From NCBI GenBank assembly GCA_001784115.1, contig MFPD01000011.1, positions 28,869-92,868 on the forward strand: a DNA stretch of 64,000 nt. The letters run 5' to 3'. The stretch is from Candidatus Levybacteria bacterium RIFCSPLOWO2_02_FULL_37_18. Its GTDB lineage: Bacteria > Patescibacteriota > Microgenomatia > Levybacterales > UBA12049. The position numbers were made by a program, and so were the translations under genes. Within the stretch, counting starts at the first letter, position 1. Every line of letters starts with the position of its first letter. Shown in pieces: positions 2,245 to 47,312 of this stretch. Under the pieces are notes generated by a model. It ran no database searches and was not told where the DNA came from. It saw only the letters and a list, made by a program, of their open reading frames with translations.

Positions 2245-5200
2245 TTATTCTCTTGCTTCTTTATCTACATTTGCCTCCGGAACTATACTTGTTTTCAAAT
2301 CCCCCGTTGCAACTTCACTTGCGCCTAATTGCCTTTGCATTTCATTTGCTTCTTGTTTGACTTTTTCTTCTTGACTTGCAGACATAATCCCTTCTGTTGG
2401 TTCCGCCTCAACTATTATGGCGGGTTTTATGGGTACGACATTGAGTCCCAAAGCCTGAAGTTCTTTAATCAAAACTTTAAACGATTCAGGAACTTTTGGT
2501 GTTGGGATATCAGTCCCTTTTACAATAGCCTCAAATGCTTTTGCTCTTCCAACGACATCATCTGATTTAATGGTTAACATTTCTTGTAGTGTATAGGCAG
2601 CTCTATGAGCTTCAAGTGCCCATACTTCCATTTCTCCCAGTCTTTGTCCTCCCATTTGTGCTTTTCCACCGAGCGGTTGCTGGGTAACTAAAGAATAAGG
2701 TCCTGTAGAACGGGCATGAGTTTTATCCTCAACCATATGAATAAGTTTCATCATATATTCGATGCCCACCATAACTGGGTTTTTATACGCTTCGCCTGTT
2801 CTTCCGTCATAAAGCGTAACCTTTCCGTTTACAGGAAGACCAGCTTTTTTAAGCACAGATACGATTTTATCTTCTTTTATGTCTTCGAATACAGGAACTG
2901 CAAGCTTTGTAGAGAGTTTTTTTGCTGCCCAACCCAAATGAGCTTCTAAAAGCTGACCTAAATTCATACGAGCCAAAACCGAAATCGGAGAAATTACGAT
3001 ATCAACCGGCGTACCGTCCTCTAAACACGGCATATCTGCAACGGGTAAAATCTTTGAAATAACTCCTTTGTTGCCGTGTCTTCCTGCCAGCTTATCTCCT
3101 ACAACTACGTGTCTAAATTGGGCTACCTCAACGATAATTTTTCGAATCGCCCCCGGCTCTAATTCGTCACCCTTTTTCCTGTCCAATATCGAAACACTGA
3201 TTACTGTCCCTCTTTCCCCATGAGGTATGCGCAACGATGTGTCTCTGACTTCTCTTGCTTGCTCTCCAAAGATTGCCCGAAGCAGTCTTTCTTCTGCGGT
3301 TAGTTCTGTTTCTCCTTTTGGAGCGATTTTACCCACTAGTATATCTCCCGGTCCCACTTCGCTTCCAATAACCACAATTCCATCTTCGTCTAAATTTGCC
3401 AAATCTTCATCAGAAACATTAGGAATATCCCTTGTGGTTTCTTCCGGACCAAGTTTTGTTTCTACAACAGAAGCTTCGTATTTCTCGATATGAATTGACG
3501 ACAACACATCTTCTTTAACGAGCCTGTCGGAAATAACAATTGCATCTTCATACCCCAAGCCGTCTAAAGAAGCATACGCTATTAAAAGATTCTGTCCCAA
3601 AGCCAACTCTCCATTTTCAGACGCGGGACCATCAATTAATACATCTCCTTTTCTAACTCTTTGCCCACGAAGTACGTATAGTTTTTGCGTATACGAGGTT
3701 GCTTGTGAAGTTCGTTTGAATGATTCAATGGTATAGGTCACTTTTTGACCTTTGTCACCTTGGAATACTAAGCTACTTGCGTCAGCATGAAGCACTCTTC
3801 CATCGAATGGGGCTCTGACAACCCGATTCATAACCCCTGAGACTTCCCTTTCCATATTTGTCCCAACCACAGGGCTCTCGGGTTTAACAAGCGGTACTGC
3901 CTGACACTGCATATGGGTTCCCATAAGCGCCCTGTTTGCTTCGTCGTGATTAATAAATGGAATTAAAGAAGCCGCTGTCCCAAATACCTGTCTTGGGATG
4001 ACGTCAATGTATTCTATTTTCTCTTTGTCAACTTCTATAAATTCTCCTCTAAATCGAACAGGCACTCTCTCCGCTTCGATGGTATCTTTATCAGACAAAA
4101 CCAACGCGGCAGTTATATAATGCTCTGCTTCATCATCAGCGTCTAGGTATACAATTTCATCGGTTGCTTTTATGGTTATTTTTCCTCCTCGTTTTTCTTT
4201 TACTACTTTTCTGTACGGCGCTTCTAAAAATCCACAATCATTGACTCGTGTGTATAACGCCATGTATGTAACAAGACCAATATTAGGTCCCTCAGGAGAC
4301 CTGATTGGGCAAATTCGGGAATACTGAGAACTGTTTATATCCCGAATTGAAAATGCTGCTCGTTCTCTTGAGATTCCACCGGTTCCCATAACTGTCAGTC
4401 TGTTTAAATTATCAATTTCAGAAAGCGGATTAGTCTGATCTAAAATAGTTGATAATTGTGATGTTCTAAAAAACTCATTAATAGAAGCCATAATTGGTCG
4501 GGCATTAATCAAACTAGCAACAGATACCGGAATATCCGGCTGGATAAGACTCATACGCTCTTTAATACTTCGCTCAAGTCGTAAAACTCCTACTCGAAAT
4601 GCCGTGGTTGCAACCAATTCTCCTACTCTTCTGACTCGTCTATTGGCCAAACTGTCGATATCATCAACCGTACCCTGTCCGCTCTTCAAAAGAATTAAAT
4701 ACCCAATGGTTGCAATAATATCTTCTATTGCAAGAACTCTTTCCTCTGTGGTTCTAAAGCCTGGTACATTTGATAACTTTTTGTTTATTTTGTATCTACC
4801 AACAGTTCCTAAGTCGTATCTCCTGTTATTAAAAAATAGGCTAATAAAGTTTTCTCTTACTTTATCTAACACAACAGGCTCACCTGGGTGCATTTTTTTA
4901 AAGATTTCGATTGTGGCTTCTGTTTCGTTTTGGGTTTCGTCTTTCTCAAGGGTATTTTCGATAAACGATTTTTCACCATTTTCTATACTTGAATCTTTAA
5001 GTGCTGCAAATTTATCCAAAATGTTTTGATTTGAAGAAAGACCTAATGCTCTTAAAAAGGTAGTTACGGGAAATTTCCTTCGCCTATCGATTTTTACGCT
5101 AATCGTATCGTGCCGGGTTGTAGAAAATTCTAACCACGAACCATGAATAGGCCTAATTTCTGCTATATATAAAGGTTTTCCTGTAACCGGATCTGGCACA

Positions 5201-5643
5201 GAAGTATAAAAAACGCCCGGAGAACGGACGAGTTGGTTAACAACAGCTCTTTCAATACCATTAATAATAAAAGTACCCCTATCGGTCATTTGCGGGATAT
5301 CTCCTAAAAACACTTCTGCTGTGTGATTTTTGCCTGTTTTTTTATTAGTTAGAATTGCTTTTACGTATAAAGGAGCATCAAAAGTCAAGCCTTTTGCTAA
5401 AGCTGTAACAGGATCATTTGTGGTTTTCCCCAAACGGTAATTAGTTAAAGACAATGTCCAATTTTTTTCTGTGAAATCGTCAATTGGAGAAATTTCATGT
5501 AAAATCTCTCCGATTGCTTTTTCTTCAAACCACTTATAAGACTGTTTTTGTGCGGCAAGTAAATCCAATTGAGGCTCAATAGAGTATTTTCTTCCCCAAT
5601 TCTCTCGTACTATGTTGTTTGTTTTTGTATCTTTTTTAGCCAT
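2245..5643 (-). CDS. rpoB: DNA-directed RNA polymerase subunit beta
   Basis: 1132-aa ORF with conserved beta-subunit blocks throughout (e.g. GTHMQCQAVPL, NMEREVSGV, GDKLAGRHGNKGVISKI, MVGIEYMMKL). Conserved rpoB-rpoC adjacency. Confidence 0.97.
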   Translation of the reverse strand: MAKKDTKTNNIVRENWGRKYSIEPQLDLLAAQKQSYKWFEEKAIGEILHEISPIDDFTEKNWTLSLTNYRLGKTTNDPVTALAKGLTFDAPLYVKAILTNKKTGKNHTAEVFLGDIPQMTDRGTFIINGIERAVVNQLVRSPGVFYTSVPDPVTGKPLYIAEIRPIHGSWLEFSTTRHDTISVKIDRRRKFPVTTFLRALGLSSNQNILDKFAALKDSSIENGEKSFIENTLEKDETQNETEATIEIFKKMHPGEPVVLDKVRENFISLFFNNRRYDLGTVGRYKINKKLSNVPGFRTTEERVLAIEDIIATIGYLILLKSGQGTVDDIDSLANRRVRRVGELVATTAFRVGVLRLERSIKERMSLIQPDIPVSVASLINARPIMASINEFFRTSQLSTILDQTNPLSEIDNLNRLTVMGTGGISRERAAFSIRDINSSQYSRICPIRSPEGPNIGLVTYMALYTRVNDCGFLEAPYRKVVKEKRGGKITIKATDEIVYLDADDEAEHYITAALVLSDKDTIEAERVPVRFRGEFIEVDKEKIEYIDVIPRQVFGTAASLIPFINHDEANRALMGTHMQCQAVPLVKPESPVVGTNMEREVSGVMNRVVRAPFDGRVLHADASSLVFQGDKGQKVTYTIESFKRTSQATSYTQKLYVLRGQRVRKGDVLIDGPASENGELALGQNLLIAYASLDGLGYEDAIVISDRLVKEDVLSSIHIEKYEASVVETKLGPEETTRDIPNVSDEDLANLDEDGIVVIGSEVGPGDILVGKIAPKGETELTAEERLLRAIFGEQAREVRDTSLRIPHGERGTVISVSILDRKKGDELEPGAIRKIIVEVAQFRHVVVGDKLAGRHGNKGVISKILPVADMPCLEDGTPVDIVISPISVLARMNLGQLLEAHLGWAAKKLSTKLAVPVFEDIKEDKIVSVLKKAGLPVNGKVTLYDGRTGEAYKNPVMVGIEYMMKLIHMVEDKTHARSTGPYSLVTQQPLGGKAQMGGQRLGEMEVWALEAHRAAYTLQEMLTIKSDDVVGRAKAFEAIVKGTDIPTPKVPESFKVLIKELQALGLNVVPIKPAIIVEAEPTEGIMSASQEEKVKQEANEMQRQLGASEVATGDLKTSIVPEANVDKEARE

Positions 5644-5673
5644 TTGCTTTCTTATATTGCGGGCCGTTTACAA

Positions 5674-5702
5674 CAAAAAAAATAAGCAGTCCCACAGGAC
5701 TG
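5674..5702 (-). terminator. Hairpin (CAGUCC-ugug-GGACUG) followed by a U8 tract in the rpoB 5' leader; candidate attenuator/intrinsic terminator
   Basis: Minus-strand RNA reads agaugaCAGUCCugugGGACUGcuuauuuuuuuu. It lies 30-60 nt upstream of the rpoB ATG (5643). Confidence 0.4.
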
Positions 5703-5803
5703 TCATCTTTTAGAAAAGATAGAGTAAACTACTTATAACACACCTTGAACAGCGGTGTCAAGGCCTGAAAATATTGGTAACTGTTTACACTTCTGACACG
5801 ATT

Positions 5804-5918
5804 TTGTCATTCTGGAGGCTGAAAGCCGACTTGCCTGCCGGCAGGTAGGTAGAATCTCTCCCAAAGTTAGATGCTATCGCTACGCCGAGTCAGACTCGGC
5901 TGCGCTCCAGCATGACAA
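5804..5918. mobile_element. MITE-like palindromic element copy A (TIR attttgtcattctgg / ccagcatgacaattt)
   Basis: Terminal inverted repeat ttgtcattctggag...ctccagcatgacaa (13/14). Internal palindromes cctgccggcagg and gccgagtcagactcggc; the latter 15-mer is shared with copy B. Flanked by imperfect direct repeats aactgtttacac (5779-5790) and aactgtgaatagttacaca (5927-5945). Confidence 0.55.
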
Positions 5919-6105
5919 TTTTATTAGAACTGTGAATAGTTACACATTTGAAACTAACAAGTTGACATACCTAAGGATTTTTAATTATTGAACATTCTTT
6001 TCAAAAGAGATACCAGACGCGGTTAAATAGTTCTTCTAAATGAGACCGTAGTGGAATGGGTATTTTCAAATGGGGTTTTGTCGGTCCAACAAATCTGGTA
6101 TTTAC

Positions 6106-6474
6106 TTATTTCTGACAAAGTATGTCGAGTAAATCCATTTGCTCATGAGGAAACTCATGACTATACCCATATTTTCCAGAATCAGTGACTATATATTCAA
6201 CCGAATCATCAAGCATTAAACGAGTAAAATGAGCCAGTCTTCCATTTCCCCCACCAACTTCTAAAACTCGAATCGGTTTACCTGCTGATGCTCCTAATCC
6301 TTTCGCACGCAAATGTAAATATCGAGAAAATGCGTCAATAAACTCAACGGTTAATAGTTCGTAAAAATTCTTTCTACTCTTAGAATCTATACCAAAACAA
6401 AATAAATCCCATTCATTTTTATCAGAGGGTACGCTATGGTCAAAAACAGACCATACTTCTACAAGAGTTGGCAA
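6106..6474 (-). pseudogene. Fragment of a class I SAM-dependent methyltransferase (N-terminal part incl. motif I; no ATG start, C-terminal half missing)
   Basis: Translation contains VLEVGGGNGRLAHF (motif I, GxGxG) and the post-I acidic residue (YIVTD). The frame ends ~25 aa later. The only ATG codons are near the 3' end, and a TAG lies 3 codons upstream of the TTG used by the ORF caller. Sits between MITE-like copies A and B. Confidence 0.5.
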
Positions 6475-6555
6475 ATGCTTCGGATCATTTAATCGCTATC
6501 TTATTGCTTCTTTACTATCTACTTCCTGCTTTTCTAAAACTTCTATCATATTAAG

Positions 6556-6675
6556 ACTGTGAGTGAGACATAATTCACATTGTCATGCTGGATTTATTTC
6601 ACCGAGTCAGACTCGGTTTCAGCATCTCCATTTTATAGATTCTGAATCAAGTTCAGAATGACATTTATGTCCCAG
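6556..6675. mobile_element. MITE-like palindromic element copy B with 10-bp flanking direct repeat (tcatattaag)
   Basis: Exact 10-bp direct repeat tcatattaag at 6546-6555 and 6676-6685. Terminal inverted repeat tgagacataa (6563-6572) / ttatgtccca (6664-6673) matches 9/10. Internal ttgtcatgctgg...cagaatgacat, ccgagtcagactcgg (identical to copy A) and attctgaatcaagttcagaat palindromes. Confidence 0.6.
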
Positions 6676-7208
6676 TCATATTAAGCGTATATCAAAAGTA
6701 AATTCTTGAAAGACGTTCTTCAGATTATTGGTAGTAGCTCAAATTGAAGTAGACATTATTTCACCTTAAACATTCTTATTTACGTATAATCTAGAAAAAA
6801 TACTTGCACTAATCTAAAAACAAAAAATAGGATTGACCATGCCAGAAAAAATAGAAAAATTAGTAATGGTATTGAGATTACTCATTTTACCATTTAGGCC
6901 ACTTCGCCCATTTCGGGGCTAAAATCAAACCTATTGGGTATACAAAGATCAGAAGTAAGACAGTAATAATAGATTTTGTATCCTCAGACATTCCATGATT
7001 TTTCTGCACCATAATTTCATTAAACTCTCTCTGTATTTGTCAAGAGTCAAAAAGATCAAAAAATTGTGATGTTTTTGTGATTAGAAATCCCGTGGAAAAT
7101 TAGAAAACAAATAGACGATTAAAATCTGAATTAGTTTCAATGTTTTGAAACATTTAAACTCATTCACCTTATCTATTTTACTCTTTTAGGAAAGCTTGTA
7201 AAGGGTGT

Positions 7209-7236
7209 TTGTCTGGAATTGTGTTCGTGCTATAAT
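7209..7236 (+). promoter_or_regulatory. Candidate sigma70-type promoter with extended -10 (TGcTATAAT) for alaS; start codon only ~7 nt downstream (possible leaderless mRNA)
   Basis: tgcTATAAT at 7228-7236, weak -35 ttgtct at 7209-7214 (16-bp spacer). alaS ATG at 7243. Confidence 0.4.
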
Positions 7237-7242
7237 CTTTCT

Positions 7243-8655
7243 ATGACGGCAAAAGATATTATTGATACCTACATTTCTTTTTTCGAAGAAAGAGGACACA
7301 AAAAAATTGAAAATTCTCCGCTTGTATTGCAAAATGATCCGACAACTCTTTTCACAAGTGCCGGCATGCAGCCCTTAGTGCCATATTTGCTGGGAAAAGA
7401 ACATCCAGAAGGAAAAAGATTGGTAAATGTACAAAACTGTTTTCGCGCTCAGGATATTGATGAAGTCGGAGACAACAGACATACTACGTTTTTTAGAATG
7501 CTTGGCAATTGGAGTCTTGGGGATTATTTTAAAAAAGAAGAAGTTTCCTGGTTTTGGGAATTCTTAACCCAAAAGCTTACTATTCCAAAAGAACGGTTAT
7601 ACATAACAGTATTTAAAGGAACAAATGAAATTCCAAAAGACGAAGAAGCAGAGCAAGTTTGGAAAGAAATAATTCTACAGGAAGGAATGAATCCGAAAGA
7701 ACGGATTCTTTATTACGGTACAAAAAAAAATTGGTGGTCGCGCTCCGGAGTTCCGGAAAATATGCCTGCCGGAGAACCGGGAGGACCGGACACTGAAGTT
7801 TTTTATCGATTTAATATAGAGCATAATCCTGCTTTTGGAGATGTGTGCCACCCAAATTGCGACTGTGGCCGATTTATGGAAATTGCAAACTCAGTATTTA
7901 TGCAGTATGTTAAGCAGGAAAATGGATCATTCAAAGAGCTTCCTAAAAAAAATGTAGATTTTGGCGGAGGACTCGAAAGACTTCTTGCAGCAGTTGAAAA
8001 TATGCAGGACGTATTCCAAACCTCTCTTTTTGCTCCCATAGTTGCCGGAATTTCCCATGCAATTAACAAACCGTATTCTGAAGAATCAAAAGAAATTCGA
8101 ATTATTGCCGACCATTTTATTTCTGCCTGTTTTATTGCAGCAAATGACGTAATACCTTCTAATAAAGAACAAGGATATATTTTAAGAAGATTAATCAGAA
8201 GAGGACTTGACAGTTTTTATCAGCTGCAGGGAGGAAATCTTTCAGAGATTATCGAAACTATTGTTGATCAATATAAGAATACCGATCAGATTCTTTTAAC
8301 TAAGTTTGAACATATTAAGAACACAATTCTTGCCGAAGAAAATAGCTACAGTCAAACACGAAGAAACGCAAGGAAACTTATTACCAGAAAATATCCTTCG
8401 GCAAGCCATTCGGCCCGAGTTCAGGCCGAGGGCTTGGGGCAAGCAAGAATTGGAGATGAATTAAAAGGACAGGTTGAAATCTCGACAGAAGACGCTTTTG
8501 TGTTGTATACAGCTCACGGTCTTTCTCCTGCTCAAATTAAAAGCCTCGGGTTTTTGTTTAATGAGGATGAATTTGTACAAAAAATGAAAGAACACCAGCA
8601 GCGCTCAAAAATGTCAGGTACAAAAAAATTCGACAGAGTCAAAGAAATTAGGTAA
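7243..8655 (+). CDS. alaS: Alanyl-tRNA synthetase, catalytic/tRNA-recognition fragment only (no editing or C-Ala domain)
   Basis: MTAKDIIDTYISFFEERGHKKIENSPLVLQNDPTTLFTSAGMQPL aligns with the E. coli AlaRS N-terminus ([22 protein letters not shown]...NDPTLLFTNAGM). The C-terminal end ...FVLYTAHGLSPAQIKSLGF...EHQQRS matches E. coli ~400-460 (FRLYDTYGFPVDL...EAAMEEQRRRA). The stop immediately follows. Confidence 0.85.
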   Translation: MTAKDIIDTYISFFEERGHKKIENSPLVLQNDPTTLFTSAGMQPLVPYLLGKEHPEGKRLVNVQNCFRAQDIDEVGDNRHTTFFRMLGNWSLGDYFKKEEVSWFWEFLTQKLTIPKERLYITVFKGTNEIPKDEEAEQVWKEIILQEGMNPKERILYYGTKKNWWSRSGVPENMPAGEPGGPDTEVFYRFNIEHNPAFGDVCHPNCDCGRFMEIANSVFMQYVKQENGSFKELPKKNVDFGGGLERLLAAVENMQDVFQTSLFAPIVAGISHAINKPYSEESKEIRIIADHFISACFIAANDVIPSNKEQGYILRRLIRRGLDSFYQLQGGNLSEIIETIVDQYKNTDQILLTKFEHIKNTILAEENSYSQTRRNARKLITRKYPSASHSARVQAEGLGQARIGDELKGQVEISTEDAFVLYTAHGLSPAQIKSLGFLFNEDEFVQKMKEHQQRSKMSGTKKFDRVKEIR

Positions 8656-8664
8656 TATATACCT

Positions 8665-11010
8665 ATGCCTATTTCCCTGCCTTTTTTCAAAAAAAAAGAA
8701 GAGCCTAAATACTTTTTAGTACTGCTTTTAAGAGGAGAAAAAGTCCACGCCGTACTCCTTGAGGAATTGGATGGGAAAATAAAAATACTCGAAAAATCCC
8801 AAGAGTTTTTTCAAAGTTCAATTGAAGACACAAGCGAAGAAGAATTATTAACAGTACTCGATAAAGCCATAACCAATGTAGAATCCACTCTTCCTCTTGA
8901 TTTCCCTACTCACCAAACTGTTTTTGGAGTAAAAGAAAACTGGGTGCTTGATGGGAAAATAAAAAAACAATACCTTAGCAAACTTAAAAGAATCTGCGAT
9001 GAATTAGGTCTTGCTCCAATTGGATTTTTAGTTATCCACGAAGCAATCGGACACTTGATGAAAAAAGAGGAAGGAGCACCTGTATCAACACTTCTAGTTG
9101 AAACCGGTAAGCGATCTTTAATTGTTTCTTTAATAAAAGCAGGAAGAATACTCGAAACAAAAAGCGCTCCGGTTAAAGGATCATATGCTTATACCGTAGA
9201 TACACTTTTAAAAGAATTTGCTACAAGCGAAATCTTGCCTTCTCGAATTACTATTTTTAACGACGACAAAAATGAAGATGTGCTAATGCAGGAATTTATC
9301 GGACACACATGGAGCAAAAGCCTTCCTTTCTTACATGTTCCTCAAATTACAACTCTTTCTAAAGATTTTGGCATATATGCAATTATAACTGCCTCTGCTC
9401 AGCAAATGGGCTTTGAGGTTTTAGAAACAGAAAATGAAGTTGAAATCCACCAACAACTAGAGACTGCAGAGGTTCGTAAACCAGCAATAGAATCAGAAAA
9501 AGAAACCGAAGGCTACCAACCACAAAATGAGGTTCAAAGTGTTAAGGAAAGCCAAAGTTTAGAACGAGAACAAGCAGAAGAGATAGAAAAAGGAGAACAA
9601 GCAGACAACAAAGAAGCTTTATATCCGAAAGAGGACGTATTCCAAAAATTCGGATTCTACAAAGACACAGACATCGCTAAAATTTCAAAAGAAGAAGTTA
9701 TTCCACCCGAACCAATGGCGTCTCAAGAAGAATCATCTGCGCATAAACAATCCTCAAATTCATTTTTATACACGGCCATTTTAATACTCTCAAAAGGAAA
9801 ACACGTTCTTTCTCATACATTTCATACGCATATTAAACATCGTATAAAAAAACCCCGTATTTCTTTTACCATGCCTAAGGGAAAATTTGTTTTGCCGGTA
9901 TTCATAACAATTCTTTTGTTACTAGGAGCAATCCTATTGTATATTTTTGGTATAAAAGCGATTGTCACCTTGACAATCGAACCAAAAGTTATTAAACAAA
10001 CCCAAGACGTCGTATTCGTAAATACGTCTTCTGACTTCTCTAAGAATACTATTGCTGCTGATTTTATTACCATATCAGAAGAAGGATCGGTATCCGAAAC
10101 TATTACAGGCAAAAGAGAAGTCGGAGAAAAAGCCAAAGGATCGGTTACGTTGTACAGCAGATTTACCCAAGATAAAACTCTTCCTTCTGACACAACAATT
10201 ACTTCTTCAAACGGATTGCAGTTTGTATTTGATGATGATACAAAGCTTGCTTCAGCTTCTGCTGGCGCAAGTGCCTCTCCATCAACTACAAAAGCAAATG
10301 TAACGGCAAAACAAATTGGCAAAGAATCTAATCTTCCTTCTGGAACTAAATTTTCTGTTTCATCGTTTGACATATCAGATATAGAGGCAAAAAACGACAG
10401 CGCATTCTCGGGCGGATCGAAAAAAGAAATAACCGCAGTATCAAAAAATGATTTACAAAAAGCTCTAGACGATTTACCAAAACAACTCGAACAAAAAGCC
10501 AAAGAGGACCTTTCTAAAAAGGTATCAAAAGACCAAGCTATTCTTCCTTCCTTTATCTCAACCACTGTGGGTAAAAAAGATTTTGATAAAAAAGAAGGAG
10601 AAGAAGCAAAATCTCTAATACTTAAAGGAACCGTAGACTATAAAGCAATCGCATACAAGAGAAGTGATTTTATTCTTTACGCAACACGTATTCTTTCAAA
10701 CAGCTTTCCCAGCAATTTTTCCATTTCTCAAAATAATCTAAAAGAAACCGTTAAAAGCATTAAGCAAAAAAATGGTTCGGAAGTTTTATCAACCCTGGAA
10801 ATCCAAGCGTTTTTAGTATCTAAATTAGATATGGAAAATATGAAAAAAAACATTACCGGAAAGACGTTTTTGCAAGCAGAGGATCTTTTATTAAAACTTC
10901 CGCAAGTTTCTGATGTAAGAATTATTCTTTCTCCCAATGTGTCATTTTTACCCAAGTTCCTGCCCCGAATTTCTAAGAATATAGAAATTCGGACGAAAGT
11001 AAATGACTAA
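8665..11010 (+). CDS. Actin-fold (FtsA/PilM-like ASKHA) N-terminal domain + E/Q-rich linker + single TM + large extracytoplasmic domain; hypothetical
   Basis: N-terminal ~270 aa show ASKHA-like blocks (KYFLVLLLRGEKVHAVL; CDELGLAPIGFLVIHEAIG; LLVETGKRSLIVSLIKAGRILE...GSYAYTVD) resembling FtsA phosphate-1/phosphate-2 (…VDIGGGTTDIAV…) but degenerate. TM segment FVLPVFITILLLLGAILLYIFGI at ~aa 415-440, followed by a ~340-aa Ser/Thr-rich domain. The next gene is a sortase. Confidence 0.45.
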   Translation: MPISLPFFKKKEEPKYFLVLLLRGEKVHAVLLEELDGKIKILEKSQEFFQSSIEDTSEEELLTVLDKAITNVESTLPLDFPTHQTVFGVKENWVLDGKIKKQYLSKLKRICDELGLAPIGFLVIHEAIGHLMKKEEGAPVSTLLVETGKRSLIVSLIKAGRILETKSAPVKGSYAYTVDTLLKEFATSEILPSRITIFNDDKNEDVLMQEFIGHTWSKSLPFLHVPQITTLSKDFGIYAIITASAQQMGFEVLETENEVEIHQQLETAEVRKPAIESEKETEGYQPQNEVQSVKESQSLEREQAEEIEKGEQADNKEALYPKEDVFQKFGFYKDTDIAKISKEEVIPPEPMASQEESSAHKQSSNSFLYTAILILSKGKHVLSHTFHTHIKHRIKKPRISFTMPKGKFVLPVFITILLLLGAILLYIFGIKAIVTLTIEPKVIKQTQDVVFVNTSSDFSKNTIAADFITISEEGSVSETITGKREVGEKAKGSVTLYSRFTQDKTLPSDTTITSSNGLQFVFDDDTKLASASAGASASPSTTKANVTAKQIGKESNLPSGTKFSVSSFDISDIEAKNDSAFSGGSKKEITAVSKNDLQKALDDLPKQLEQKAKEDLSKKVSKDQAILPSFISTTVGKKDFDKKEGEEAKSLILKGTVDYKAIAYKRSDFILYATRILSNSFPSNFSISQNNLKETVKSIKQKNGSEVLSTLEIQAFLVSKLDMENMKKNITGKTFLQAEDLLLKLPQVSDVRIILSPNVSFLPKFLPRISKNIEIRTKVND

Positions 11011-11704
11011 GCTTTACTATAAAAAATCTAACAAAAAAAATCTAAAGATTATAATCCGTATTGTTTCAATCGGAATATTTCTTGCCGGATTATATGTTCT
11101 TTCGTATGTATTCCTTCCTATATACTCATGGCATATATATTTTGCGCCAGTATTCGCTGCTCAAAATGTAAACTACCCAATTCCTAAATTATTACTTCTT
11201 ACTCCAACAAGTAATACGTCTATTGATACAAAATATCTTGACGCAAAAAATTGGTTTCCTACACTTTCCACGACAGATACTGCTCCAAAAATTTCATCCT
11301 ATACTCTCTCTATTCCAAAACTATCTATTAAAAATGCGCTTGTTTCTACAATTAACAATGATCTCTCAAAACACTTAGTCCATTACCAAGGAACCGCGCT
11401 TCCACCAGACAATGGAAACGCAGTTATTTTTGGTCATTCAACATTGCCGCAATTATTTAATCCAAAAGATTATACAACTATCTTTGCTAGAGCTTATACT
11501 CTTTCTAACTACGATAAAATTATTTTACAAATGCAAGGCATTACCTATACATATAGTATATATAACACGACTGTTGTTAATCCAACTGATACTTCTCCGT
11601 TTAACCAAGACTATGCTTTTAGTCACCTCACGCTTGTTACCTGTACACCTCCAGGAACAACATGGAAACGCTTAATCATAAAGGCAAAAATTGAGAATTT
11701 GTAA
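11003..11704 (+). CDS. Sortase family transpeptidase (membrane-anchored)
   Basis: N-terminal TM anchor. Conserved His (AVIFGHST), catalytic Cys in TLVTCTPPG and downstream Arg (WKRLII), in sortase order. Confidence 0.75.
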   Translation: MTKLYYKKSNKKNLKIIIRIVSIGIFLAGLYVLSYVFLPIYSWHIYFAPVFAAQNVNYPIPKLLLLTPTSNTSIDTKYLDAKNWFPTLSTTDTAPKISSYTLSIPKLSIKNALVSTINNDLSKHLVHYQGTALPPDNGNAVIFGHSTLPQLFNPKDYTTIFARAYTLSNYDKIILQMQGITYTYSIYNTTVVNPTDTSPFNQDYAFSHLTLVTCTPPGTTWKRLIIKAKIENL

Positions 11705-14916: not shown

Positions 14917-15981
14917 CTATTCAAGAGGTATGTATTCATTGGCTGAATGAATTACCTCCTTTACACCTGGTCCTAAAACAACTGCTTCGATTCCATGTTG
15001 AGCAAAAAATACTTGATCTGTTGACCCAAGAGAAGTTGTAATAGATAGTTTTGGAAAAAACTTTTTCATTTTCTTTACGACTTCATTGTTACTAGAAATA
15101 TATATTGGTTCAATTGGATTTTTTAGAAATGAGGTGATAATTTCTTCTCCTACTGTTTTTTTAAGTAACTCTAATAATTTTCCGTGAAGCTTCGGGGTTG
15201 TTCTTATATCAAGAGTTACAAAACAAGCGCTTGGAATTTTGTTAATTGATTCACCAGATGTATAAATACCGGTAATATTAAGACTTGGTTCTCCTAATAT
15301 ATAATCCTCAAATTCTATCTGCCAATTCTTAAACTCTTTTTTTATTTTTCCTAGTGTGGCTAAAAATTTTTCAATAGCATTATCAGAAAAATCATGTTGT
15401 TTTGCTCCGTGACCAGCTTTTCCCAATGCTTGAATTTTGATAAACGCATTTCCTCTATGACCAATTTCTATAGAAGAAAGATTAGTCGGTTCTCCAACAA
15501 TCGCAAAAATTTTCTCATACTGTCATACTGTTTAAAGTATTTAGTTTTTTTAAACCACCTCAAAAAAATTTTGTGTTCCCAAACCATCAGTTTCTTCATT
15601 ACAAACAAATGTAAACCAAACATCAAGTGGAGAATTTTGTAAAGATTTTGCTAAAAGAAGCATTGCTGCGATTGCTCCTTTATTATCACTTGCTCCCAAT
15701 CCATACAGTTTTCCATCAAAAATTTTTCTTTCTAACGAACTACCTTCTATAGTATCCATGTGCGCATTAAAAATAATGCACTTGTTTTTATTTTTTCCTT
15801 TGAAACAAATTACTACATTTCCATGTAGAAGTTTTGCTGGAATATTATTTTGTTTACAAAAATTCAAAATAAAATTTGTGAGCTTTTTTTCCTGTCCAGA
15901 AGGAGAATAGATTTGAACCAGATTCTGTAAAAGTTTTTCAGGATTCATAGTGTTCTCCTTTTCCGCCAAAAAGTTTTTCAC
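14917..15981 (-). pseudogene. M20 family metallopeptidase (ArgE/DapE-like acetylornithine deacetylase-type) interrupted by four clustered in-frame stop codons
   Basis: N-part (15550-15981) has M20 catalytic motifs (NAHMDTIEG, GASDNKGAIAAM, CNEETDGLG). C-part resumes in the SAME frame with ...QYEKIFAIVGEPTNLSSIEIGHRGNAFIKIQALGKAGHGA. Between them lie TAA (15550-52), TAA (15541-43), TAA (15532-34), TGA (15523-25), with an exact 8-bp tandem duplication catactgt|catactgt at 15516-15531. Confidence 0.7.
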
Positions 15982-16191
15982 TTTCTTTTTTTGTTTTCAA
16001 TTTTGCATCAGTTATTCTTCTAATGTTAAAGTGCGTCCAATCGCTATATTTTTTTACGAGGATTTTTTTGAACGATTTCTTGTTTGAAAAGCATTAGTAT
16101 ATGAACCTTCGTTACCCATAAATCATACAAAACCAATTTCTGGTCTAATTCTTTTTGCTTTTCCGAAATAATAAAATGATCCGTGTTCATA

Positions 16192-16969
16192 CTATTTTTT
16201 TTGCATTAAATATAACAGTATTGCCATTTGTGCCCACATCCTATTTTCTGCCTGATCTAAGACAATTGAATTCTTACTATCCAAAACTTCATCAGTAACT
16301 TCAACATTTCTTCTTACTGGCAAACAGTGCATAAAATATGCATTATTCGTTAGTTTCATTTTTTTAGAATCAACAATCCAATTTTTTAATCCTTCTCTGA
16401 TTTTTTTCTCTCTTTCCCAATTTCCGTAATAAGACAAAGCTCCCCAACTTTTAGCACATACCACCTCTGCATCTTTAAAACTTTCTTCCATATTATTTGA
16501 AAATGACAATCTTCCTTCTGCTTCTTGTGATCTTTTTTTCATTGTTTTAACAGTTTCCTCATCTAATTCCCACCCTTTAGGATAAGTAACTGTTACGTCC
16601 ATCCCTAAATCACATGCAGATAAAATTTGAGAATTCGGTGTTGCAATCGGTAATGCTTTCGGATGATAAACCCATGTAAGCACACATTTTTTATTTTTTT
16701 GCATTACCAAGTTTTTCTTTAATTGTCATAGCATCACCCAATCCTTGACATGGATGAAACACGTTAGACTCCATATTAATTACTGGAACTGAGGAATATT
16801 TCATGAATGATTTTACAACAGTATCTTTTTTTAATTCTTCCCAAGCTTTAACATTCACACTCTCAGTTGAACTTGTAATTAATTCGCTTGATCTTATTGC
16901 CAATCCATCACAGTATCTAGATAAAACACCAGATGCTTCTTTTACATGCTCAATGGTATTCTTATTCAT
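16192..16969 (-). pseudogene. argF: Ornithine carbamoyltransferase remnant (N-terminal ~80 aa missing, internal frameshift near 16691-16710)
   Basis: Two overlapping ORFs: 16691-16969 (...SRYCDGLAIRS...VPVINMES...HPCQGLGD) and 16192-16710 (...HCLPVRRNVEVTDEV...). Upstream in-frame sequence (16970-17040) hits a TAA and is not OTC-like. The STRTR carbamoyl-phosphate-binding region is absent. Confidence 0.7.
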
Positions 16970-17009
16970 AGCTACGCCGTCATTAAATTCAAAAGTATAA
17001 CTACCATCC

Positions 17010-17371
17010 CAGGCATTGAGCCAATGATTGCATCTGCAATTTTAGGAGAGATTGGGGACATTAAAAGATTTCCCAATGTTCCATCTCTAATTGCTTATGC
17101 AGGACTGGACCCCACTACCTTTGAATCGGGAAGCAGCATCACAAAACACAGGAAGCTTTCTAAGAAAGGCTCTAAGTATTTAAGAACTGCACTATGGCAG
17201 GGTACTGTTTACTCTTTGGTACATAATCCCAACTTAAAAGCATTCTATGACAAGAAGCTCTCTGAGGGAAAACCAAAACAAGTAGCTTTAGGTGCTGTGA
17301 CCAACAAACTTACCAGGATTATTTATGGCATCCTAAGATCTGGTCAAGATTATCAACTAGATTTTAGTTAG
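17010..17371 (+). mobile_element. IS110-family transposase C-terminal fragment (Transposase_20 domain only)
   Basis: IPGIEPMIASAILGEIGDIKRFPNVPSLIAYAGLDPTTFESGSS...GSKYLRTALWQGTVYSLVHNPNLKAFYDKKLSEGKPKQVALGAVTNKLTRIIYGIL is the IS110-family C-terminal signature. No N-terminal DEDD domain upstream (that space is occupied by the argF remnant). Confidence 0.75.
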
Positions 17372-38170: not shown

Positions 38171-39607
38171 GTGAGCAAATTTTTCATTACCAACGCAATA
38201 CCGTACGTGAATGCAAAACCGCATATTGGTCACGCGCTGGAATTCGTGCAATCCGACGTGATCCGTCGATTTCATCTTTTACAAGGCGATGAAACCGTTC
38301 TTTTATGTGGTGGAGACGAAAATGCAATTAAAAATGTCCAGGCAGCGGATCGAGCCGGAAAGCCGGTGCAAGAATTTATCGATGAGAATACAAAGTTATT
38401 TTCTCAACTTGCAGAAAAACTAAATGTCCATTTTGATTTTTGGCAGAAGGCAAGTAGTAAAAATCACCATATTTCCTCTCAAAAACTTTGGGAACTCTGC
38501 AATAAGAATGGCGACATTTATAAACAAACATACACCGGACTGTATTGCGTCGGATGTGAACTGTTTTACGAAAAAGAAGAGCTTGATGAAAATGGTGAAT
38601 GTCTTGAACATCCTGGAAAAAAGTTAGAGGAAGTTTCTGAAGAAAACTATTTCTTTAAATTATCGAAATACGAAAAAAAACTCTTAGAACTCATTGAATC
38701 AGATGACCTCAAAATTACTCCTATTGGACGCAAAAATGAAGTAGTTTCATTTATTAAGCAAGGGTTAAAAGACATTAGTATTTCACGCTCTAATAAACGT
38801 GCAAGAAATTGGGGAGTGCCGGTTCCCGACGATGACTCTCAACGCATGTATGTATGGTTTGACGCCTTAAATATTTATCAAAGCGGTATTGGATTTGGAT
38901 CGGAAGACGAATCATTGTATAAAAAGTGGTGGCCGGCAGATGTGCATGTTATTGGCAAAGGCATAACACGTTTTCATGCCGTGTACTGGCCGGCATTTCT
39001 TTTATCGGCAGGACTTAAAACTCCTAAATCTATTTTAGTCCATGAATACATTACTGTAAACGGACAAAAAATGTCAAAAACCTTAGGGAATGTTATCGAT
39101 CCAACAATACTCATTGATAGGTATGGAACAGACGCGCTCAGATATTATTGTCTTGCAAAAATTTCACCATTTGCCGACGGTGATTTCTCCGAGGAAAAAC
39201 TGAAAGATGTTTACAATGCCGACTTGGCAAACGGCCTTGGAAATCTAGTCGCACGCGTTGCAAAATTGTGTGAAACCAACGAGGTATCCATTTCAGACAT
39301 TCCTCATCGTGTTCCAAATGTAAGTCTAAAAGGAGGATATATCGAATATTTTGAACGATACGAGTTCAACTTAGCATTAGAAGAACTATGGAAAGATATT
39401 AAAGATCTAGATGTTGCAATAAATACTGAAAAACCCTGGACTCTCTCAAAAGAAAATGCTACACCCTTATTAAAAATTCTTGCTTATCAAATAAAAAATA
39501 TCGCGCATGGAATTAAACCATTCCTTCCCGATACAGCAGAGAAGATTTTAAAACAGTTTAAAGGGCCAGGAATTATGGCTCAATCTCCTCTTTTCCCACG
39601 GCTATAA
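38171..39607 (+). CDS. metG: Methionyl-tRNA synthetase (short form, no C-terminal tRNA-binding domain)
   Basis: HIGH motif (PYVNAKPHIGHALEF), zinc-knuckle region (CVGCELFY...CLEHPG), KMSKS (QKMSKTLGN). Confidence 0.93.
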   Translation: MSKFFITNAIPYVNAKPHIGHALEFVQSDVIRRFHLLQGDETVLLCGGDENAIKNVQAADRAGKPVQEFIDENTKLFSQLAEKLNVHFDFWQKASSKNHHISSQKLWELCNKNGDIYKQTYTGLYCVGCELFYEKEELDENGECLEHPGKKLEEVSEENYFFKLSKYEKKLLELIESDDLKITPIGRKNEVVSFIKQGLKDISISRSNKRARNWGVPVPDDDSQRMYVWFDALNIYQSGIGFGSEDESLYKKWWPADVHVIGKGITRFHAVYWPAFLLSAGLKTPKSILVHEYITVNGQKMSKTLGNVIDPTILIDRYGTDALRYYCLAKISPFADGDFSEEKLKDVYNADLANGLGNLVARVAKLCETNEVSISDIPHRVPNVSLKGGYIEYFERYEFNLALEELWKDIKDLDVAINTEKPWTLSKENATPLLKILAYQIKNIAHGIKPFLPDTAEKILKQFKGPGIMAQSPLFPRL

Positions 39608-46454: not shown

Positions 46455-47312
46455 CTATTTCCTTTCTGCGTAGTCGCTTATTATCCAACCTGTTTTACCG
46501 TCTTCTAATTTTACTTCAAACCACCCGTCTTTTTCAGACACAAACTCAAACGTATTACCAGGATAAACCACAGTTATTTTTGATTCTGTAACTGAATTGC
46601 CGCTTCTGACGTTTAAGTATCCTGTAGGGGTTTCTAATATAGTAACCATCGAAGGCGTATTCGTTGGAGTTGCAGAAGGCGTAGCAAGAGGTGTAGCTTT
46701 AACTTGAGTTTCCCCGCTTACTCCTAAAAAAACAATTGCTTCGAGTTTGTATCCGGAAACGGTTTTAATCCGAAGCGTTTTTTGGTTATACTCGTCTTTT
46801 TTAAATTGCAATTCATGGTCTGAAGAAGTTATATTTTGCAAAAAAAGCGGAGTTGCTCCAACCGATTTACTATCCAACAGAGTTTCTGCTTTTTCAGGCA
46901 TGGAAAGCAATAAAATTTGGGATGATTTTTTTTCATTTGTTGGAGTAAGAGTAATAATACTTCCTTCGGAACTTGCTCCTTTTCCAAATGTCCTGTCAAC
47001 TACAGTCAAAACCGATTTATTGATTTTTATTTTTTGCTCAAAAGGAGAAAGTCCTGCTTCTTGGGTAACTTCATCCGAAACCAATGGAACAAGCCGAATG
47101 GTATACTCTCCTGACGGCAACATGTCACTGACATCACATTTACAAAACGGAGTCTGTCCTATTAATTTTCTGTCTATATACACAGCGCTTTTTGGCGTGC
47201 TGGTTATTTGAAGAGCTCCTTTTCCTTTATCTTTTAGAATAAAAAAATATAATCCTGATACAACTATTACAAGCATGAGAAATGGAACAAAAATTGGAAA
47301 TAGTTTTTGCAT
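46455..47312 (-). CDS. PEGA-domain + bacterial SH3-like domain membrane-anchored protein
   Basis: N-terminal TM, PEGA-like (ALQITSTPKSAVYIDRKLIGQTP...GEYTIRL) and C-terminal SH3b-like (GYLNVRSGNS...GWFEVKLEDGKTGWI). Confidence 0.6.
   Translation of the reverse strand: MQKLFPIFVPFLMLVIVVSGLYFFILKDKGKGALQITSTPKSAVYIDRKLIGQTPFCKCDVSDMLPSGEYTIRLVPLVSDEVTQEAGLSPFEQKIKINKSVLTVVDRTFGKGASSEGSIITLTPTNEKKSSQILLLSMPEKAETLLDSKSVGATPLFLQNITSSDHELQFKKDEYNQKTLRIKTVSGYKLEAIVFLGVSGETQVKATPLATPSATPTNTPSMVTILETPTGYLNVRSGNSVTESKITVVYPGNTFEFVSEKDGWFEVKLEDGKTGWIISDYAERK

Follow-up and report, generated by a model that had tools for sequence, protein, structure and literature searches.

The window analysed here, a stretch of 64,000 nucleotides (64 kb) from the genome of Candidatus Levybacteria bacterium RIFCSPLOWO2_02_FULL_37_18, carries an alaS gene whose product, an alanyl-tRNA synthetase (AlaRS) of 470 amino acids, consists of catalytic and tRNA-recognition domains only. 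Judged from its position and its relatives, the gene is the orthologous housekeeping alaS of the organism, and it very probably encodes a functional mini-AlaRS without editing in cis. The overall explanation that we consider best, and favour with some reserve, is that a housekeeping AlaRS has been cut down to its aminoacylation core, that the loss of editing is tolerated, and that the enzyme is translated from a leaderless mRNA.

What would be the significance of such an enzyme? To our knowledge, AlaRS editing is regarded as universally retained. AlaRS is presented in the literature as the only synthetase to preserve its prototype of catalytic, editing and C-Ala domains throughout biology, and in E. 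coli, yeast, mouse and human harm follows when its editing is lost (PMC10036535, PMC12143591). Repeated deletion of the editing domain from the only visible alaS would amount to an experiment of nature on the Ala/Ser/Gly fidelity that a minimal cell requires, and a lineage with a mini-AlaRS would also test whether editing in cis can be replaced by trans-editors or by discrimination intrinsic to the active site.

An aminoacylation core at the alaS locus

The gene, its 3' end and the neighbours that anchor the locus are as follows:

7243 to 8655, plus strand: alaS, mini form; 470 amino acids, catalytic and tRNA-recognition domains only, with matches to PF01411 and NF002436
8623 to 8655, plus strand: proposed deletion junction; KKF at 8623-8631, then the seven-residue tail DRVKEIR and TAA at 8653-8655
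8656 to 8664, plus strand: spacer of 9 nt to the next gene, too short for an editing domain
2245 to 5643, minus strand: rpoB, the divergent upstream synteny anchor
8665 to 11010, plus strand: Baseplate_J-like gene (by Pfam), 781 amino acids, the downstream synteny anchor after short and long alaS
11003 to 11704, plus strand: sortase gene, next after the Baseplate_J-like gene

The open reading frame (ORF) runs from the ATG at 7243 to the TAA at 8653-8655. An earlier reading of this DNA (the sequence-only reading) had delimited it correctly and given its product 471 residues, a length that includes the stop codon; the actual figure is 470. The sole Pfam domain is tRNA-synt_2c (PF01411; E 7e-100, profile positions 2-435 of 552), and the protein has what defines class II AlaRS in PF01411 and TIGR00344, namely motifs 1-3 and the helical tRNA-recognition domain, its alignment to TIGR00344 spanning positions 2-431 of 847. 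On the NCBIfam model for small-AlaRS (NF002436, PRK01584; 595 positions) it aligns at positions 1-442 only and scores 394.6 bits against a cut-off of 529, whereas the long relative P0004 reaches 601.9 bits over positions 1-590. The full length and the tRNA_SAD domain with HxxxH and CxxxH motifs that go with NF002436 are missing, with no match to PF07973, and a C-Ala (DHHA1-like) domain is found neither in the window protein nor in any of its relatives of ~600 residues.

The structural comparison gives the same picture. The top sequence matches in the PDB are catalytic fragments engineered from the AlaRS enzymes of A. aeolicus and E. coli (E 1e-64 to 1e-58), and an AlphaFold model of the 470-residue protein (pLDDT 81, pTM 0.80) superposes on these fragments with TM-scores of 0.80-0.84, the catalytic-fragment fold being complete. 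Its low-confidence parts are limited to the motif-1 loop, an insertion at residues 388-408, which varies among lineages, and the last 12 residues. Pfam, NF002436, the PDB matches and the superposition thus all bear out the proposal of the sequence-only reading that this AlaRS stops at the catalytic-fragment boundary. The E. coli yardstick used there held good for the end of that fragment; as a reference for what is missing, the 876-residue E. coli enzyme is replaced to advantage by small-AlaRS relatives of ~600 residues, which already lack the beta-barrel and C-Ala, and the loss in the window protein is that of the editing domain only, about 150 residues.

The protein is identical to NCBI entries OGH19022.1, OGH21982.1, OGH23053.1 and OGH33675.1, from metagenome-assembled genomes (MAGs) of Rifle aquifer Levybacteria, and was seen on 18 contigs, the longest of 164 kb. 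All four entries are labelled 'hypothetical protein', which may be because the score on NF002436 is below threshold (394.6 versus 529 bits). As a consequence of that sub-cut-off score and that label, surveys of completeness or metabolism across the Candidate Phyla Radiation (CPR) could report such genomes as lacking AlaRS.

Is the gene at the place where a housekeeping alaS would be expected? In the complete Levybacteria genome CP066685.1 (L003), a long alaS has a divergent rpoB on one side and a Baseplate_J-like gene of 716 amino acids on the other, the latter followed by genes for sortase, pyrimidine-nucleoside phosphorylase and YceG. The order alaS, Baseplate_J-like gene, sortase, pyrimidine phosphorylase and YceG recurs around short forms (the window, L001, L002, L019-L021, L033 and L046) and is identical around long ones (L003, L004, L007, L011 and L022). 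A divergent rpoB also precedes the long alaS of L004, and at the short-form loci L019 and L020 a long minus-strand ORF, cut by the contig end, occupies the rpoB position.

The junction itself can be read by comparison with the long relatives, in which the editing domain (GGLADH...HTATHLLH...CGGPH) begins directly after the conserved KKF. The window protein ends seven residues past KKF, with a tail, DRVKEIR, that is unique to it, and the ATG of the next gene, at 8665, follows 9 nt past the stop. Short forms in general end 0-12 residues past KKF with tails unrelated to one another, and at all short-form loci the neighbour comes directly after the stop, overlapping it or separated by at most ~40 nt; the arrangement of the window is found again at L001, L002, L019, L020, L021, L033, L046 and L064. 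No editing domain was found in the six frames of the 64 kb by tblastn with four Levybacteria editing domains (best E 0.93), nor any tRNA_SAD, DTD or YbaK domain by Pfam scans of the 44 ORFs of at least 100 amino acids between 6,106 and 58,040, so that the absence of downstream editing motifs, claimed earlier, holds within the 64 kb. By these comparisons the window alaS is a clean in-frame deletion of the last ~150 codons, those of the editing domain, at the original locus. Both a paralog and a frameshifted gene are ruled out, because the gene order is that of long alaS and the stop stands directly before the neighbour; a frameshift hiding an editing domain, which had been named as a possible refutation, is thereby discounted, with the next gene 9 nt on and the same junction at other short-form loci.

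Short and long forms of AlaRS

The closest homologues belong to Candidatus Levybacteria (CPR/Microgenomates). Among the best 120 relatives of the window protein, 106 are 596-646 residues long and combine catalytic, tRNA-recognition and tRNA_SAD domains, and 12 are true short forms of 450-470 residues; P0112, a partial record, and P0051, of intermediate length (567 residues), were not counted as short. Comparison of alaS length across related genomes, suggested earlier as a check, thus places most relatives at ~600 residues with an editing domain and makes the short forms a minority. They come from ENA, Logan, JGI and NCBI assemblies, and the window protein is 60-67% identical to the long forms. 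A further sample of 80 related loci from JGI and NCBI metagenome contigs contained 58 clearly long forms and three more short ones: L033, on the 776,497-bp contig Ga0070741_10000004, L046, and L064, on the 792,246-bp WNFI01000001.1, the last with an identity of only 48% and probably from outside Levybacteria. The editing domain is retained in all seven distant relatives (42-50% identity) among the GTDB species representatives.

In a neighbour-joining tree of the catalytic parts the short forms are scattered over several places; the tree is unbootstrapped, and the inference of multiple losses rests mainly on nearest-neighbour identities and distinct junctions. Eight of the 12 short forms have a long form as their nearest relative, with short/long pairs at 80% (P0011/P0008), 78% (P0084/P0055) and 73% (P0064/P0062) identity, while short forms of different groups share only 57-68%. 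Their C-terminal tails read DRVKEIR, DRT, ERKAQKV, SIK, EIKK, RV, AGRS, SGNH and others, and the junction DNA differs between short-form lineages. Because of the scattered tree positions, the long-form nearest relatives and the differing tails, the comparison is read as at least five independent deletions of the editing domain in Levybacteria, with loss also in more distant CPR lineages. Short forms stand slightly further from the long-form consensus (72% versus 76% identity), and the substitutions that recur in them (P29L, E52K, Q100E and G458S) are present in a subset of lineages only, none of them in the active site.

The five Logan short-form contigs (L001, L002, L019, L020 and L021) all derive from runs SRR22387818-SRR22388344, apparently a single study, and are 60-77% identical to each other, which hints at one habitat rich in editing-less Levybacteria; coming from neighbouring run accessions, they are not an ecologically independent sample.

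How does the window protein compare with AlaRS enzymes already known to depart from the prototype? The nearest in kind is the small-AlaRS of CPR, DPANN and others, which has neither beta-barrel nor C-Ala (bioRxiv 10.1101/2023.05.29.542759). The window protein shares with it 60-67% identity, the locus, the motifs CHPNCDCG, EI[G/A]NSVFM and DFGGGLER, and the lack of those two domains; the small-AlaRS, however, keeps an editing domain of ~150 residues with HxxxH and CxxxH, whereas the window protein stops at model position 442 of 595. The Tupanvirus mini-AlaRS (TuAlaRS) charges tRNA-Ala and acceptor-stem microhelices and can replace yeast AlaRS, and its authors consider it the only natural aminoacyl-tRNA synthetase with the aminoacylation domain alone (Antika et al. 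2023; PMC10036535). Its likeness to the window protein is one of architecture only, both being natural proteins of catalytic and tRNA-recognition domains. TuAlaRS is viral and derives from an AlaRS of eukaryotic host type, whereas the window protein is cellular and bacterial, is encoded at a chromosomal alaS locus and descends from small-AlaRS; TuAlaRS has also lost both residues that contact G3:U70 (P and T in place of N and D), of which the window protein keeps the Asn.

The E. coli N461/N441 and A. aeolicus N453 fragments (PDB 3HXU, 1RIQ) resemble the window protein in domain boundaries and fold, and engineered catalytic fragments of both enzymes are active in aminoacylation (PMC10036535). 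They are laboratory truncations of enzymes of 870 residues, whereas the window protein is natural and under selection. The split AlaRS of Nanoarchaeum equitans (PMC10036535) is another natural departure from the canonical structure of the AlaRS gene, and it too is found in a reduced genome. There, however, the split falls inside the tRNA-recognition domain and the beta subunit supplies editing and C-Ala, whereas the window locus has no editing part; no split partner was found in the 64 kb, nor among eight stand-alone editing-domain ORFs that were inspected. Our literature search turned up descriptions of small-AlaRS and of the viral mini-AlaRS, but none of a cellular AlaRS without editing and none of a loss of synthetase editing in CPR.

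The fate of proofreading

If the editing domain has gone, has the rest of the enzyme been kept in working order? Compared with the short form of L001, the window alaS has a ratio of nonsynonymous to synonymous substitution rates (dN/dS) of 0.08 (at dS ~1.7, near saturation), and by this measure purifying selection on the gene is strong. At the positions equivalent to E. coli D235, G237 and N303 and to Methylomonas V204 and L219, the window protein and all 13 proteins below 520 residues have these very residues; among the 120 homologues there is no exception for D235, G237, V204 or L219, and N303 is replaced by Lys in six long forms.

These residues bear on another question, namely whether the active site itself might have learned to refuse serine. 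In the Methylomonas enzyme, L219M abolishes serine misactivation without the editing domain, acting through Val204, and the authors ask why nature never uses serine rejection of this type (PMC12143591, 2025), a question that the mini-AlaRS makes testable. Compensation of the L219M type is ruled out here, the equivalent Leu (L233) and Val (V218) being invariant in short and long forms. The small-AlaRS family has EI[G/A]NSVFM in place of the canonical EIWNLVFM, immediately next to the Val by which serine binding is gated (window 7840-7935, residues ~200-230), together with the Cys/His cluster CHPNCDCG and with DFGGGLER in place of the canonical DTGMGLER. That this remodelled pocket would itself reject serine, and so be a natural answer to the 'serine paradox' of AlaRS, seems improbable to us.

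The course of events starts from ancestors with a small-AlaRS of ~600 residues, comprising catalytic, tRNA-recognition and editing domains. An in-frame deletion removed the editing domain of ~150 residues, while the gene stayed where it had been and its active-site residues remained intact. By analogy with E. coli N461, A. aeolicus N453 and the Tupanvirus mini-AlaRS, the shortened enzyme would charge tRNA-Ala through acceptor-stem recognition; it would presumably be unable to hydrolyse Ser- or Gly-tRNA-Ala. The lineage would then tolerate a higher rate of Ser/Gly-for-Ala errors, with Gly-tRNA-Ala perhaps trimmed by generic deacylases. A model for such tolerance is provided by Mycoplasma, likewise bacteria with reduced genomes and lost or degraded proofreading, although there LeuRS, ThrRS and PheRS are concerned and not AlaRS; a 2011 PNAS report by Li et al. 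is said to have found these three editing-defective and the mistranslation tolerated.

That no AlaRS-type editing is left and a higher error rate is tolerated has, in our estimation, an even chance of being right, and we prefer it slightly to an AlaX protein encoded elsewhere, the two being about evenly matched. The wider claim, that AlaRS-type proofreading is missing from the entire genomes of the Levybacteria with a mini-AlaRS and of a few other CPR lineages, is not quite an even prospect; if it is true, they would be the first known cellular organisms to dispense with the editing of Ser- and Gly-tRNA-Ala, and to have done so repeatedly.

Several points weigh against the tolerance of lost editing in the form just given. 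The 64 kb examined belong to a genome of perhaps 0.8-1 Mb, and an AlaX-type editor or a second alaS could lie elsewhere in it. Repeated loss would be equally expected with a trans-editor already in place and does not discriminate between tolerance and editing in trans. For recognition of the acceptor stem, the window protein keeps the Asn of the PSN motif, a contact of G3:U70, whereas the residue aligned with E. coli D400, which we take to be the other such contact, is Thr; this Thr is family-wide in small-AlaRS and not specific to short forms, and the position was assigned by way of an alignment with other small-AlaRS sequences (a phmmer search of the C-terminal 68 residues against the PDB for the same position returned only spurious TAL-repeat matches to 'HGLSPAQ'). 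Finally, no tRNA-Ala gene in which G3:U70 could be checked was found in the window or at 43 related loci.

Might proofreading instead be carried out in trans? Here a free-standing AlaX-type (tRNA_SAD) deacylase would clear Ser-tRNA-Ala, and DTD may clear Gly-tRNA-Ala. AlaX proteins are known from all three domains of life, and they make up for defects in AlaRS editing. They are discussed in PMC11260482. With a trans-editor present the cis domain would be redundant and therefore easily lost, so that an AlaX backup would readily explain the repeated independent losses, and purifying selection on the catalytic part would still be strong. Against this account, the 64-kb window holds no AlaX-type gene. 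A search with the Levybacteria editing domain gave ~2,400 small proteins; the best 120 matches were listed, and the eight that were inspected all proved to be pieces of a long alaS at its normal locus. None of the best 120 matches lies on the short-form contigs of 776 kb, 792 kb and 164 kb, an observation that weakly disfavours family-related editors only. We regard editing in trans as a serious contender, if a somewhat improbable one.

Public CPR collections contain many seemingly stand-alone AlaRS editing domains of 130-280 residues that could be mistaken for AlaX genes. As candidates for a relocated editing domain, those of L005 and L006 were rejected as products of nanopore frameshifts in a long alaS, that of L007 as the product of a 1-nt frameshift, those of L008-L010 and L011 as the result of N-gaps, and that of L022, despite its tempting MVKKFHGGLADH start, as the effect of a contig edge.

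It is very unlikely that a second full-length alaS elsewhere does the housekeeping and that the window copy is an auxiliary or specialised paralog. Some bacteria have AlaRS-like paralogs, and 64 kb leaves room for such a gene beyond them. CPR genomes, on the other hand, are small and rarely keep duplicate synthetases, and the window gene sits where Levybacteria have their orthologous single-copy alaS, shares 60-67% identity with the long housekeeping forms and retains the promoter conserved in these; its decay as a paralog, raised earlier, is excluded by the same locus and by the dN/dS of 0.08. Hardly credible, finally, is an artefact of assembly or annotation or a recent pseudogene, in which a frameshift, gap or misassembly hides an editing domain or has just destroyed it: many 'split' public alaS genes are of this kind (L005, L006, L007, L008-L011 and L022), but here an intact conserved neighbour stands 9 nt past the stop, no remnant of the editing domain appears in any frame, the identical protein recurs in four MAGs and on 18 contigs, the same clean junction is seen at eight other independent loci, and selection is strongly purifying.

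Leaderless geometry and the neighbouring genes

The remaining element of the explanation that we favour, a mini-AlaRS translated from a leaderless mRNA, concerns the following features upstream of the gene:

7209 to 7214, plus strand: -35-like hexamer TTGTCT, 16 nt upstream of the -10 box
7228 to 7236, plus strand: extended -10 box TG-c-TATAAT, with 6 nt between its end and the ATG
7243 to 7245, plus strand: ATG start codon, placed by alignment of the N-terminus, and predicted transcription start, placed by its spacing from the -10 box

In a consensus scan of positions 5600-9200 the alaS promoter is the best sigma-70-like site (10/12), tied with one site on the minus strand, and it alone of the two has the upstream TG. 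The start codon is well placed, the window N-terminus MTAKDII aligning with MTAKDII, MTAKEII or MTAQEII in homologues, and no Shine-Dalgarno (SD) motif was found upstream of the ATG. Because transcription by sigma-70 normally begins 6 nt past the -10 hexamer, the mRNA is predicted to start at the A of the ATG; the alaS mRNA is inferred from this geometry to be leaderless and translated without an SD site, from an extended -10 promoter. The box and its distance of 6 nt to the ATG, which the sequence-only reading had already pointed out as leaderless geometry, stand confirmed by the scan and by their conservation in relatives: TGnTATAAT occurs upstream of alaS at eight of nine Levybacteria loci, at exactly 6 nt in five of them, and at 55 of 77 metagenome alaS loci a TATAAT-like box ends 6-9 nt before the ATG, 44 of the 55 with the TG extension.

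Is this a peculiarity of alaS? Leaderless-like geometry is found in the window also at ftsK (20505, minus strand), dnaJ (34226, minus), metG (38171, plus), tatD (40271, plus) and a gene at 47312 (minus), metG appearing to start with GTG. The window has 33 TATAAT-like boxes no more than 60 nt from a start; seven of them lie at 6-7 nt (~1.2 expected), and SD-like motifs precede only five of its 48 gene starts. By these counts the geometry is not specific to alaS; it is both a habit of the genome, seen at first genes of operons, and a property of alaS across the clade. The leaderless mRNAs of Actinobacteria and Deinococcus (for example those of M. tuberculosis, cited in PMC12641261) resemble those predicted here in having a -10 box ~6-7 nt before the ATG and no SD. 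A literature search found no description of leaderless initiation in CPR or Levybacteria, and the conserved distance from -10 box to ATG would be comparative evidence for heavy use of leaderless, SD-free initiation in Microgenomates.

The gene after alaS had been described as an actin-fold membrane protein. The label 'actin-fold' finds no Pfam support: the only match is the Baseplate_J-like domain at residues 484-588, and the N-terminal 260 residues are blank. Across loci the protein, which always comes directly after alaS, is 670-800 residues long; its middle segment is hydrophobic and its Baseplate_J-like domain weak. The sortase gene is always next to it, often overlapping by a few nt, and the pair is kept across Levybacteria (the window, L001-L004, L019-L021 and L033).

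Upstream, the spacer between rpoB and alaS (5644-7242) measures 1.6 kb, compared with ~220 bp in CP066685.1. Its sole sizeable ORF, of 122 amino acids on the minus strand (6106-6474), carries motif I of S-adenosylmethionine-dependent methyltransferases (VLEVGGGNG; best Pfam E 0.048) and is probably a gene remnant. A Rfam scan of the window gave no matches. Further downstream, inside otherwise conserved synteny, gene debris fills positions 14917-17371 between a YtxH-like and an HTH_25 gene: an M20 peptidase broken into two ORFs (14917-15426 and 15550-15981), an aspartate/ornithine carbamoyltransferase of which just the C-terminal half is present (16192-16710) and a fragment of an IS110-family transposase (16946-17371). 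The complete genome L003 has no such debris at the matching position. The methionyl-tRNA synthetase of the window (MetRS, 38171-39607) is likewise minimal, its 478 residues comprising catalytic and anticodon-binding domains without the C-terminal tRNA-binding appendix.

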